Positions 4,919 through 58,917 of a DNA stretch of 64,000 nt are shown here, piece after piece. Each line of letters begins with the position of its first letter. Within the stretch, counting starts at the first letter, position 1. The position numbers and the translations under genes were made by a program. The stretch comes from Elusimicrobiaceae bacterium (GTDB taxonomy: Bacteria > Elusimicrobiota > Elusimicrobia > Elusimicrobiales > Elusimicrobiaceae). The stretch spans positions 1,545 through 65,544 of the forward strand of contig JBGUOO010000041.1 in the NCBI GenBank assembly GCA_045129775.1, given 5' to 3'. The notes under the pieces were generated by a model. It did not search any database, had not been told where the DNA came from, and saw nothing but the letters and a program-made list of their open reading frames with translations.

Positions 4919-4953
4919 AAAAATTCCCCGGCTTAATCAACCGGGGAATTTTT
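4919..4953. terminator. Bidirectional intrinsic terminator between proS and a convergent pilin gene
   Basis: AAAATTCCCCGG / CCGGGGAATTTT inverted repeat flanked by A/T runs. Confidence 0.8.
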
Positions 4954-5530
4954 AGTTATACTCCACAAAATAGTAATCATATTCGGAGTTATTGGTCGTT
5001 AATTTTTTACCGGATTCTTGCTCGCAAATTTTAGAATCCGGTGCTCCCAAATCTTTGGAATATGCACGACAAACAGTGTGCATAGAACCCGAAGAAGAAT
5101 GAGCAAAACGACGTACATAAGCCATATATGGCTCATTAGATTTAAACACAAAACAAACAGCCGCTTGCGTGTAACCAGCCCCGCTTATCAATTGACATTC
5201 CCCGCCATTAAACGTACACGTAGTGGTTGTACACGACATACCACCCGGCAAATCAATATCTAAGTTTCTAAAATCATCTGTATACGTGCCATTTGCCAAA
5301 TAATACACTTCCTCGGCCTCTTCCAATGTTTTGACAATAGATTTGATGGTAGCATAACGGCTTTTCCATACGGCTACTTGGTATTGTGGCACGGCTACCG
5401 CCGCCAAAATACCAATAATTAAAACAACTACTAAAAGCTCTATAAGCGTAAAACCTTGATGAGCCCCCCTTTTTGTCGGCAAGCCGACGTTTCCCCCGCA
5501 AGGGGGACAAATAACAGCATTATCTTTCAT
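4952..5530 (-). CDS. Type IV pilin (PilE-like), poly-T-promoter class, extended leader peptide
   Basis: G|FTLIELLVVVLIIGILAAVAVPQYQ prepilin motif; SD AGGAG before ATG 5530; in-frame upstream ATG at 5554. Confidence 0.92.
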   Translation of the reverse strand: MKDNAVICPPCGGNVGLPTKRGAHQGFTLIELLVVVLIIGILAAVAVPQYQVAVWKSRYATIKSIVKTLEEAEEVYYLANGTYTDDFRNLDIDLPGGMSCTTTTCTFNGGECQLISGAGYTQAAVCFVFKSNEPYMAYVRRFAHSSSGSMHTVCRAYSKDLGAPDSKICEQESGKKLTTNNSEYDYYFVEYN

Positions 5531-5560
5531 TTTAGTTTCTCCTGTGAACGACATACTAGG

Positions 5561-5588
5561 AGTGTACCAAAAAAAAAAAACAAGTCAA
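5561..5588 (-). promoter_or_regulatory. Sigma70-type promoter with a T12 tract in the spacer
   Basis: TTGACT-TG(T12)GG-TACACT, 16-nt spacer; near-identical copy at 48247-48273. Confidence 0.75.
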
Positions 5589-5684
5589 GCGTTTCCAAGC
5601 CACGGAATTTCCGCGCTGGCCATATACCTTAAATCTTTTAGTTAGTGACCGCGAGAAGCTCGGCAAAAAATGGGACCACGTTTT

Positions 5685-5742
5685 CCCCCTCTCTGCGGTG
5701 CTAACGCACTCGTTCTCCCCCTCCAGGGGGGAGAGAAACAAC
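5685..5742. repeat. BoxC/REP-like GC-rich palindromic element
   Basis: 58 nt identical to 58860-58917; related copies at 5464, 9905, 48322 and 54727. Confidence 0.85.
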
Positions 5743-5821
5743 TGCACCGCACGGGGGTTCAATTAACAACAAAAAAACCCCAAATTGGGGGCTGTTACAG
5801 ATTCAACAACAAGATTTTTAT

Positions 5822-11929: not shown

Positions 11930-12400
11930 CTAGAACTTAATGGAGTTTTTGAACTGCTTTTCCATGTCGCGGTTGAGATCTTTTTTCTTCAAAGATTCGC
12001 GCTTATCGTAAGTATGTTTACCCTTGGCAAGTGCCAGTTTTAGTTTGGCCCAACCGTTTTTAAAATAGACTTCCAGCGGCACCAAAGCGTAACCTTTGAT
12101 TTGAGATTTACTTTCCAACTTGCGCAGTTCTTTTTTAGTCAGTAACAGCCGGCGCGGGCGCGTCGGGTCCAGCTCTGCCAAAGAATTGAATTTATAGGGT
12201 TTTATATGCATTTGATAGACGCGCGCTTGGCCGTTTTCCACACGCACAAAGCTCCCCTCCAGACTCAGCTCTTTTTGACGCAACGATTTGACTTCGGCGC
12301 CTAAAAGCTCCAGCCCGGCTTGGTACGTGTCTTCTACAAAATAGTCGTGGTAGGCCTTGCGGTTGGTGCACACGATTAAAATACTTTCCTTCTTCGGCAT
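11930..12400 (-). CDS. smpB: SsrA-binding protein
   Basis: NRKAYHDY, AGLELLGAEVKSLR, LAKGKHTYDKR. Confidence 0.97.
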   Translation of the reverse strand: MPKKESILIVCTNRKAYHDYFVEDTYQAGLELLGAEVKSLRQKELSLEGSFVRVENGQARVYQMHIKPYKFNSLAELDPTRPRRLLLTKKELRKLESKSQIKGYALVPLEVYFKNGWAKLKLALAKGKHTYDKRESLKKKDLNRDMEKQFKNSIKF

Positions 12401-47592: not shown

Positions 47593-48216
47593 TCAATTTA
47601 ATTTGTAATGCACCCAGTTTGAGTTTTCCCATGCCCAAGTTCCCCCCATACTTTGGCAAATTTCTTTTCCCAGTTTATTCTCCGGTTTTGAAGAACAGTA
47701 CCGGTCTCCTTTCTCATTATTAAAACCTGAATTCTCTTTTACAAAGTGCATATATGTAATTTGGCTCGTAGAATCAATAAACTGAACATTAGTAAAACCA
47801 TAATTAAGTACTATAGTGCCAAAATTACAAATATATTTTGCGGTACTTACATTTCCATCTTCTTCACATGATTCCAAAGAAGCAGAAACATCCAAAGAAT
47901 CAAAATCGGTTGCAAAAGTTCCGTTAGCCAAATAATAGGCCTGCTGAGCCTGATAAATACTTTCCACTAGCGAAATCCCTTGATGCAAACGCGCCTTTAA
48001 AACCGCTTTTTGGTACTGAGGCACGGCAATGGCCGCCAAAATACCAATAATCAGCACCACCACCAATAATTCAATGAGCGTGAAGGCGTTGTTGTGTAGG
48101 TTGGGCTTAGCCCAACAATAAACCGCCTCTTTGCCGGCTTGTTTATCAAAGGCCAAAAAGGCTCCTTTGGCGGGGCAACCCCGCCCTACATGGATTACAA
48201 CCTTGTTACTATTCAT
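47593..48216 (-). CDS. Type IV pilin (PilE-like), poly-T-promoter class, extended leader peptide
   Basis: A|FTLIELLVVVLIIGILAAIAVPQYQKAV; SD AGGAG; in-frame upstream ATG at 48240. Confidence 0.92.
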   Translation of the reverse strand: MNSNKVVIHVGRGCPAKGAFLAFDKQAGKEAVYCWAKPNLHNNAFTLIELLVVVLIIGILAAIAVPQYQKAVLKARLHQGISLVESIYQAQQAYYLANGTFATDFDSLDVSASLESCEEDGNVSTAKYICNFGTIVLNYGFTNVQFIDSTSQITYMHFVKENSGFNNEKGDRYCSSKPENKLGKEICQSMGGTWAWENSNWVHYKLN

Positions 48217-48246: not shown

Positions 48247-48273
48247 AGTGTACCAAAAAAAAAAAACAAGTCA
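48247..48273 (-). promoter_or_regulatory. Sigma70-type promoter with a T11 tract in the spacer
   Basis: TTGACT-TG(T11)GG-TACACT, 15-nt spacer. Confidence 0.75.
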
Positions 48274-48321
48274 AGTTTTTTTTAGTTACGACGAGAAATA
48301 ACAACAAATAAACAACGGCAA

Positions 48322-48376
48322 CCCCTCACCACGGTGCTGACGCACTCGTCCTCTCCCTCAAGGGGCGAGGGAAACA
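48322..48376. repeat. BoxC/REP-like palindromic element
   Basis: Near-identical to 9905-9953 and related to 5685-5742. Confidence 0.85.
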
Positions 48377-57630: not shown

Positions 57631-58695
57631 TTATTTTTTAAGTCTTTCCCGGATTCTTTCTCTCACTCCTTGTTTGATAGCTTTCCATTGGTTGGTGGTT
57701 AAACCTGCCATACTGGGAATAGGCCGTTCTACCGCAAATTTTCTATCGGGCCTACCACCGGATAACCAAAGATACATATCCGGCTTTTCAAAGCTAGAGC
57801 GTTGCGTGATGAAAGCAAATTTCCCATTTGATCCGACATTTGGATTCGGACTAAAGAAAATAACTTGGGTTTGCGGGTCCAACACTTGTTGGGTGCCATC
57901 TTCCCCCACAATTTTTATACCTGAGGTGGGGATCTCGATCACATACCCAATGTTATCTGAAATAGCGATATCCAAAAAACACGGCGGAGCGGATACTTCC
58001 GGCACCAGGGAGCTGAATAACGCCACATCTTCCGCTAATTCCAAAGCCGAATGATATGTTTTCTCCCGGTATGCATGGAAACCGTCTTCACCACCGAATT
58101 TTTCCACGCGCTCTTTTCTTGCTTGCAAGGCGTCGCGTACGGCTTGGCGATAAGCCTCATATTCTTCGCGCCCGGGCAAGGGTTCTTCTACATAAGGCTC
58201 CCCTGTAGCCATATCAATTCCATCTACAATATCGTCGGAGTCTTGCGTATGAAGGACCGCTTCGCGCACTTTGAGCCGTTCTTTTTCGGCTTGCTCTGCC
58301 AAAAAATCTACCGCGAACTCTTGAACGGGAACAAAAGCTAGGCCACTTTCGTTTTCAGTGGCTTCCACGCGGGCAGGAGTAAGGTCCATCCCGCGGGCGG
58401 CTTTCATTTGCCCGGCCAGTTTAGACGCGGAAACGGGTGGCGGTAATTTGCCGGCCCTTGCCGCCGTGGGCGCCATGGTTTTAACCGTGGGAACACGCGG
58501 CGCTACCGGTACTTTGGGGGCGGACACTGCCGCCTTTGGAACACGCGGTGCTTTGGCGGCACCGGCCACCGGAACTTTTTTCGTTACAGCGGCCTCTACG
58601 GCCTTAGTAACGTTTTTTCCTTTGTTTTGCGCATAAACACAACTGCCGCTTACTATAAGTAAACCTAGCGCAAACACGAATGATTTGTAGTTCAT
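57631..58695 (-). CDS. Hypothetical secreted protein with a Pro/Ala/Lys-rich N-terminal region
   Basis: Signal peptide ending SCVYA; SD AGGAGG; promoter with T12 tract. Confidence 0.8.
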   Translation of the reverse strand: MNYKSFVFALGLLIVSGSCVYAQNKGKNVTKAVEAAVTKKVPVAGAAKAPRVPKAAVSAPKVPVAPRVPTVKTMAPTAARAGKLPPPVSASKLAGQMKAARGMDLTPARVEATENESGLAFVPVQEFAVDFLAEQAEKERLKVREAVLHTQDSDDIVDGIDMATGEPYVEEPLPGREEYEAYRQAVRDALQARKERVEKFGGEDGFHAYREKTYHSALELAEDVALFSSLVPEVSAPPCFLDIAISDNIGYVIEIPTSGIKIVGEDGTQQVLDPQTQVIFFSPNPNVGSNGKFAFITQRSSFEKPDMYLWLSGGRPDRKFAVERPIPSMAGLTTNQWKAIKQGVRERIRERLKK

Positions 58696-58821
58696 AACTA
58701 CCTCCTTTGCAAAATAGGGATACTTATAGTATAGCTAACAAAAAAAAAAAACAAGTCCCAATTTTCCGGGGGCACTTTTCCCGACGAAAAACAGCCCAAA
58801 AATAAAGGCAACAAGCGTGGA

Positions 58822-58859: not shown

Positions 58860-58917
58860 CCCCCTCTCTGCGGTGCTAACGCACTCGTTCTCCCCCTCCA
58901 GGGGGGAGAGAAACAAC
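58860..58917. repeat. BoxC/REP-like palindromic element
   Basis: Identical to 5685-5742 over 58 nt. Confidence 0.88.

Follow-up and report, generated by a model that had tools for sequence, protein, structure and literature searches.

Poly-T promoters in the window

The window, by which we mean the whole stretch of 64,000 nucleotides of Elusimicrobiaceae DNA analysed here, carries two minus-strand genes for type IV pilin-like proteins and one for a signal-peptide protein, each preceded by a run of 12 T's. The features of these three sites, in window coordinates, are the following.

5583-5588, minus strand: -35 box TTGACT of site 1 (in the logo of the family, TTG 100%, A 94%, last T 97%)
5569-5580, minus strand: T12 tract of site 1, the bulk of the 16-bp spacer TG + T12 + GG and one among 74 T12 runs genome-wide
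5561-5569, minus strand: extended -10 of site 1, TGG + TACACT (TACACT at 5566-5561), whose T is the final tract base
5552-5554, minus strand: upstream in-frame ATG of site 1, 6 nt past the -10, the candidate leaderless start of the original prediction
5539-5543, minus strand: Shine-Dalgarno (SD) AGGAG of site 1, 8 nt 5' of the start codon at 5530-5528; the string CACAGGAGAAAATAAAATG is common to class-A copies
4952-5530, minus strand: type IV pilin-like gene, 192 aa, with a long prepilin leader (Pfam N_methyl E = 3e-8)
5776-5793, minus strand: terminator-like hairpin and T-run closing lpxK, upstream of the site-1 promoter
48247-48274, minus strand: site-2 promoter, TTGACT (48274-48269), TG, T12 (48266-48255), GG, TACACT (48252-48247), spacer 16 bp
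47593-48216, minus strand: type IV pilin-like gene, 207 aa, behind the site-2 promoter (Pfam N_methyl E = 5e-8)
58728-58759, minus strand: site 3, GGGACT (58759-58754), TG, T12 (58751-58740), GTTAGC, TATACT (58733-58728), an atypical copy
57631-58695, minus strand: signal-peptide protein, 354 aa, downstream of site 3, without a Pfam match

Site 1 proved to be as originally predicted, since its minus strand (5561-5588) reads TTGACT-TG-T12-GG-TACACT with a 16-nt spacer, and an independent consensus promoter scan likewise returned TTGACT-16-TACACT with a TG ahead of the -10. Site 2 had been credited with 11 T's and a 15-nt spacer, but this was a miscount, as the tract from 48266 to 48255 holds 12 T's and the spacer is 16. 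At both sites the homopolymer between the -35 and the -10 is at least 8 nt long (T12), and TTGACT matches TTGACA at five of six positions, a match that GGGACT at site 3 fails. The SD-led ATG of the site-1 pilin lies 38 nt past the tract, and because lpxK is terminated upstream by a hairpin and T-run, this pilin has its own promoter. Both pilins have an N-terminal methylation motif followed by a hydrophobic helix, and they exceed the Pfam N_methyl cut-off (E = 3e-8 and 5e-8). Their prepilin leaders are unusually long, with 24 residues (5464-5530) and 43 residues (48085-48216) before the G/FTLIELL cleavage motif. We also considered the tract as the terminator T-run of the upstream gene and rejected this, since lpxK has its own hairpin and T-run 190 bp upstream and since hairpins found near the tract stop 8-20 nt before it.

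Site 3 had been proposed as a third promoter of the same kind, and here the prediction holds in part. The T12 tract and its GACTTG flank are present, but the promoter is not as described: the tract follows GGGACTTG, the -35 position reads GGGACT and so lacks the TTG that all 75 other copies share, the -10 in the register of the family is TAGCTA, and TATACT lies 20 nt away from GGGACT. The sequence past the tract resembles the GTTATCATACTACCGTA / GTTATCATACT class of the family with one base inserted, and site 3 is the sole T12 tract in the genome that stands before an intact non-pilin gene. It is probably a degenerate or captured copy of uncertain activity.

The in-frame ATG 6 nt past the -10, which had been put forward as a possible leaderless start, exists at 5554-5552 and 48240-48238. 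As a conserved start it was rejected, because only 17 of 38 copies of the same 5'UTR class carry an open in-frame ATG at this place, which reads TAT[G/A], and copies of the remaining UTR classes lack an ATG there. Upstream of all three window promoters lies a GC-rich palindromic repeat, CTCTCCCCCCTGGAGGGGGAGAACGAGTGCGTTAGCACCGCAGAGAGGGG (5685-5742, 48322-48376 and 58860-58917), which is one among about four interchangeable upstream modules preceding the core genome-wide.

A genome-wide promoter family

The genome surveyed comprises 1.51 Mb in 49 contigs, with 48% G+C. Its A/T runs number 112, 11, 2, 3, 74 and 3 at lengths of 8, 9, 10, 11, 12 and 13, respectively. Besides one T18 at a contig end, all runs of at least 10 sit in a single motif, C-TTGAyT-TG-T12-G-n-TAnAnT, in which a -35 box is joined to an extended -10 by a spacer of 16 bp, and pilin-like genes start 38-66 nt past its tract. 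In agreement with the original claim that pilin genes are preceded by promoters whose spacer is filled by a homopolymer, 72 of the 82 motif sites have an ORF with the pilin N-terminal motif (FTLIELL...) within 420 nt. Eight further sites are cut by contig ends yet show pilin-type 5' ends, and the two non-pilin exceptions are site 3 of the window and a decayed T13 copy (C13:6169). The motif read backwards gave no match in 31 genomes, and the pattern of tract and promoter is far beyond chance.

The decayed copy (C13:6169-6181) has a mutated flank, TTGATTTC, and its pilin has lost the start codon, leaving a leader-peptide remnant. Ten contigs end in the repeat formed by the promoter and the 5' part of the gene, or within 150 bp of it (C1:1-12, C2:12079-12090, C4:28925, C8:76, C12:67, C14:101, C29:68, C39:9, C47:146 and C48:67), which leaves the copy number uncertain by about 5; this repeat is one of the chief reasons for breaks in the assembly. 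Two contig-end copies may in some cases belong to a single locus, and the true copy number is therefore about 75-82. The 69 sites that lie fully inside contigs comprise 61 with T12, three with T11, three with T13 and two with T10.

In the logo of 68 T12 copies, the TTG of the -35, the G before the tract, the 12 T's, the G after the tract and the TA...T of the -10 are invariant. The boxes themselves vary: the -35 is TTGACT in 41 copies, TTGATT in 27 and TTGCAT in five, and the -10 is TACACT in 35 and TAGATT in 11, followed by TATAGT, TATCAT, TATATT and others. None of the roughly 80 family copies has an interrupted tract, and not one substitution occurs in the approximately 900 tract positions. 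The 5'UTRs joined to this core fall into at least five unrelated classes, and the sequences upstream of it into four types. The pilin paralogues are old. Their C-terminal domains have a median amino-acid identity of 25%, and ungapped identity is about 30% in their 5'UTR and upstream DNA, as compared with 81% for the 16 positions flanking the tract within the core and 100% for the tract. Thus the core, and the tract above all, is conserved against a diverged background.

The genome encodes three sigma-70-family proteins only, of 573, 372 and 192 aa. Behind a few tract promoters (C6:61489, C43:368, L095:11178 and L123:3277), a leader of about 100 nt, ..TTTTCCCAGGCCGGGT..GTATCAAAACGC.., precedes the pilin start, so that some pilin genes belong both to the class with poly-T promoters and to the class with leader RNAs. 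Tract promoters also have nearly all one orientation per contig over 50-200 kb (C6, C8, C9, C12 and C18; G009 and G014), which suggests a strong bias of the genes behind them relative to the direction of replication.

Spacer length across species

Fourteen of 18 other genomes sampled from the genus have at least three copies of the design, with a range from a handful to about 80, whereas 12 genomes that represent other genera of the order have none. The modal tract is T12 in the present genome (G000, 74/82, 90%), G007 (44/50, 88%), G008 (69/80, 86%) and G011 (23/33, 70%), as well as in G016 and G002; T11 in G014 (29/45, 64%) and G005 (10/13, 77%); and T10 in G001 (24/31, 77%). The length distributions are unimodal, the mode taking 64-90% per genome, and a broad spread with two common lengths is not seen in any of them.

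Species with shorter modal tracts reach the same total spacing. Where the present genome has TTGACT-TG-T12-GG, G005 has TTGACT-TTG-T11-GC-TAGAAT (16 bp in all six T11 loci read), G014 has TTGTAA-TCG-T11-GA-TAAATT (16 bp) and G001 has TTGCCT-AATG-T10-GG-TAAATT (16 bp in all eight T10 loci read). In a copy from a close relative (L095), TTGACTTG-TTTCTTTTTTTT-GT-TACACT, a T-to-C substitution leaves the 16-bp spacing unchanged. Since extra non-T bases restore 16 bp where the tract is T10 or T11, 16 bp is the selected state. We rejected a mutational equilibrium at 12 T as the source of uniformity, because in other species the tract is 10 or 11 T long and the spacer still totals 16 bp.

Relatives differ in what lies downstream of lpxK, but a promoter in the orthologous position has T12 in six genomes or samples with LpxK identities of 77-100%: the present genome, L095 (LpxK 93%), L123 and L124 (one species, 87%) and the more distant L031 and L019. 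In L042 the promoter at this position has T11 plus TCG, which is again 16 bp. The fetched regions of species with LpxK P0010 or P0038 contained no tract promoter.

Tract-free promoter-like sites (TTGAC[AT]-N-TAnAnT) in the present genome peak sharply at a spacing of 17 bp, with 23 matches as compared with 4-9 at other spacings, and nine of these 23 precede SD-led genes, such as groES. The 16 bp of the tract family is one below this norm. The premise of the original prediction, that 17 bp is optimal, was therefore not unreasonable, and all tract copies may be deliberately sub-maximal.

In a group of sister-species contigs (L008-L010, L093, L094, L097-L116 and L142-L152), the -10 and the first transcribed bases make up an 11-bp inverted repeat, GATAAATTTTG-N7-CAAAATTTATC, followed by A5. 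This repeat, which is not obvious in the classes of the present genome, could be an operator or a 5' RNA hairpin.

Variation in tract length

The original prediction that the tract is the part that changes length is borne out among paralogous copies, which differ by 1-3 T; in each genome, 10-35% of them are off the mode by this amount. In the deviant loci read, the flanks are unchanged and the spacers are 14, 15, 17 or 18 bp. For example, the main class of G014 comprises 29 T11, nine T10, three T12 and one T9, all behind TTGTAATCG, and G001 and G005 behave alike. There are three T13 copies in the present genome, and G008 and G007 have five and two, respectively. Of the eight deviant copies in the present genome, seven have intact genes.

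At the strain level, we compared contigs from eight samples with identical LpxK of one sister species. The promoter TTGACTCG-Tn-GATACACT is found in five of the eight, four with T12 and one with T11. The T11 contig and one T12 contig are 99.87% identical over 15.6 kb with the tract as the sole indel, in metagenome assemblies in which the T11 may be an assembly error. Assemblies of this kind do keep ordinary short runs stable, as a control with coding T8 and T9 runs showed: their lengths did not differ between 4-5 samples of another sister species. To a degree, then, the tract appears to be the least stable part of the promoter, slipping occasionally by a base between strains. A search with the pilin of the sister species returned no new samples, exact look-ups of three pilins for strains of the same species gave no match, and LpxK-anchored metagenome loci included no contig of the same species. 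The lone Logan contig of the same species (L096) stops 109 bp past lpxK, short of the promoter. An LpxK identical to that of this species occurs in Logan run SRR25030083. The genome encodes both MutS and MutL.

The same near-identical sister-species samples (L125-L132) differ in gene content as well. The pilin cassette downstream of lpxK is present in five and missing from three. It is flanked by direct repeats, TTTGCTTGACTCGTTTTT, which consist of the -35 box and the first 5 T (L127:11247-11275 and 11935-11953), and where the cassette is missing, a single repeat is left, behind which lies a 5'UTR in decay. The promoter core may thus serve as homology for the loss or gain of pilin cassettes.

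A working model and its alternatives

We consider it likely, with a probability of roughly 0.75, that the tract is the spacer of a family-specific core promoter and that T12 with 16 bp is its standard working (ON) state. Promoter function is assigned from consensus and position. A sigma-70-type factor, most likely the primary one, would recognise the -35 TTGAyT together with the extended -10 TGnTAnAnT across a spacer of TG + T12 + Gn, 16 bp in all. Transcription would presumably begin about 7 nt past the -10, and the SD-led pilin start would follow 38-66 nt past the tract. The same core fronts about 75-80 highly divergent pilin-like genes here and 12-80 in most species of the genus. Selection would hold the constant 16-bp distance and an uninterrupted oligo(dT) that enters the TG of the extended -10. 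A homopolymer of this length would occasionally slip by one or more bases, and the slipped copies, with spacers of 14, 15, 17 or 18 bp, would probably be retuned, mostly downward. Variants in tract length are thereby expected to change expression. Since an extended -10 lessens the dependence on the -35, the effect of slippage would be a graded dial, as in sabA, rather than a clean switch.

An optimum of 16 bp can be reconciled with a norm of 17. Poly(dA:dT) has about 10.0 bp per turn, being overwound, as compared with about 10.5 for mixed DNA. By this measure, the rotational offset from a generic 17-bp spacer would be smaller for a 16-bp spacer with T12 (about -11 degrees) than for a 17-bp spacer with T13 (about +25 degrees), so that A-tract twist is a plausible bridge between the two values.

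The consensus of the -10 and 5'UTR is species-specific, which points to concerted evolution, so the roughly 80 copies are not 80 independent observations. The within-genome uniformity is, it appears, partly a product of concerted evolution. In addition, a tract without interruptions is also expected from selection for mutability.

This last point leads to the alternative that fares best, namely that the tract is kept for its mutability as a contingency system. Slipped-strand mispairing would move pilins between ON (16 bp) and reduced or OFF states (15 or 17 bp), and a population would carry a combinatorial mix of pilins. Such an adaptive role, which would be compatible with the working promoter set out above and would add to it, we regard as possible but tentative, and the same holds for adaptive phase variation by tract slippage in general. 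It would account for the T11/T12 difference as the only indel in 15.6 kb between 99.87% identical strains, for the 10-35% of copies per genome that deviate by 1-3 T with identical flanks, for the intact genes behind seven of eight deviants here, for the lack of any interrupted tract in about 80 copies, and for the invariance of coding T8/T9 runs in 4-5 samples of another sister species. On the other hand, the lengths are narrow and unimodal with 64-90% at the mode, whereas classical contingency loci spread broadly; six genomes or samples agree in having T12 at the orthologous promoter behind lpxK; MutS and MutL are present, unlike in Mycoplasma, Helicobacter or Campylobacter; and the T11, seen once and in a metagenome assembly, could have arisen as an error of assembly.

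It is unlikely that the T-tract and its flanking G's form the binding site of a dedicated trans-acting factor that co-regulates the pilin bank, whether this be one of the two alternative sigma-70-family factors, a nucleoid protein or some other regulator, and that the tract is conserved for recognition. The boxes are canonical for a primary sigma (TTGACT and TGnTAnAnT), tracts of T10, T11 and T12 are interchangeable across species at 16 bp, which argues for spacing and not for recognition of a site of fixed length, and no candidate factor was identified. Such a factor would nevertheless explain why conservation is higher in the tract than in the two hexamers and why the motif is almost exclusive to pilin genes, and the 372-aa and 192-aa sigma-70-family proteins besides the 573-aa one, as well as the 11-bp inverted repeat overlapping the -10 in the sister species, would fit it too.

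The original prediction placed these copies in low or OFF states awaiting a thirteenth T, which would mean that nearly all pilin genes are silent and that a few are switched on by one T gained. We find this very improbable, even though ordinary promoters of the genome favour a 17-bp spacer and T13 copies exist (three here, five in G008 and two in G007). T12 with 16 bp is the modal state in about 90% of some 80 copies, and selection would not hold silent copies at exactly 16 bp. Moreover, the species with T10 or T11 use their extra non-T bases to restore 16 and not 17 bp, which speaks against T13 and 17 bp as the optimum. Deviants are also shorter as often as longer, with five T10 and T11 copies as compared with three T13 here and nine T10 as compared with three T12 in the main class of G014, and of the three T13 copies here, one (C13:6169) belongs to a gene that has decayed.

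Least probable of all is that the tract is functionless, inherited with a promoter cassette by duplication and gene conversion, with the deviants as sequencing or assembly errors: promoter cores that are species-specific in detail do indicate concerted evolution and many contigs do break in the promoter repeat, but with coding regions about 25% identical and 5'UTR and upstream DNA unalignable, conversion would have to be confined to the 28-bp core, 16 bp is kept across species by differing base combinations, and about 900 tract positions show zero substitutions while the -35 and -10 boxes vary.

Comparison with known systems

Only a small number of genes, in a few pathogens, are known to carry a homopolymer in the promoter spacer. 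A close parallel to the working promoter proposed here is vlp of Mycoplasma hyorhinis, in which a poly(A) tract reportedly lies between the -35 and -10 of each paralogue. ON clones and OFF clones reportedly have tracts of widely differing length, and experiments are reported to have shown switching. In both systems, an A/T homopolymer fills the spacer, each surface-protein paralogue has its own copy, and spacer length is expected to set activity. However, the lengths here are 64-90% uniform, and switching is at most a possibility. Mycoplasmas are without MutS and MutL whereas this genome has both, and vlp comprises 3-7 copies for lipoproteins whereas the present family has about 80 copies for pilins, in Elusimicrobiota.

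Further examples are the promoter-spacer tracts of porA (poly-G) and opc (poly-C) in Neisseria meningitidis and the C-stretch of fim2/fim3 in Bordetella pertussis. They likewise place a homopolymer between upstream promoter elements and the -10 of a gene for a surface structure, where one base is expected to alter output, and the Bordetella genes also encode fimbrial subunits. In contrast to the present family, these are G/C tracts of single or few genes with length polymorphism demonstrated among isolates, and in Bordetella it is the site of an activator, BvgA, that lies on the other side of the tract from the -10. The tract described here consists of oligo(dT) and occurs throughout the genus, and stabilising selection evidently favours one length of it.

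In Helicobacter pylori, a promoter-proximal T-tract of sabA acts as a "rheostat" in which slippage alters DNA geometry to give graded output, and several other genes share this design (Aberg et al. 2014, PMC4081817). As in the present family, an oligo(dT) lies near the core promoter of an adhesin gene. In sabA, however, the tract adjoins the -35 on its upstream side, where it aligns UP-like elements with the core promoter, and its length is highly variable among clones (PMC4081817), whereas here the tract is inside the spacer and its length is mostly fixed. A constitutive relative may be seen in Campylobacter jejuni, which has a T-rich "-16 region" with the consensus TTTTTTTG before TATAAT, alongside the Gram-positive TRTG (cited in PMC3824568). 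There a T run also leads straight into the TG of an extended -10 as a constitutive promoter feature and with no switch, but it has 7 T's, belongs to the general promoter consensus and accompanies a weak, non-canonical -35. In contrast, 10-12 T's here fill the spacer between a canonical -35 and the TG, in one gene family only, and other promoters of the genome have 17-bp spacers of mixed sequence.

Biological implications

A spacer homopolymer in surface-protein paralogues is a kind of feature that is already known (vlp, porA, opc and fim). What is new is the phylum, the scale (about 80 copies in a 1.5-Mb genome, and genus-wide among uncultured gut bacteria), the 16-bp optimum shown by compensation across species, and the conservation of length alongside residual slippage; our literature search found no description of a poly-T spacer pilin promoter. 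The comparative data part two things that are usually confounded, spacing under stabilising selection and the tract as the main source of indels, and they offer a natural series of how an A-tract spacer shifts the optimal distance between -35 and -10. In practical terms, the motif is a ready marker for annotating independently transcribed pilin genes, and the promoter repeat explains assembly breaks at pilin 5' ends in these genomes.

The finding also raises two questions, how a bank of roughly 180 pilin genes is deployed, and whether a commensal with intact mismatch repair uses slippage as an expression dial. One speculative answer is a genus-wide "pilin phasome" of gut Elusimicrobia, in which 12-80 divergent pilins stand behind slippage-prone oligo(dT) promoters, each a single step away from detuning, whose shared core would also provide the homology for cassette loss and gain. 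If so, commensal populations proficient in mismatch repair would continuously generate cells with differing combinations and doses of pilins.
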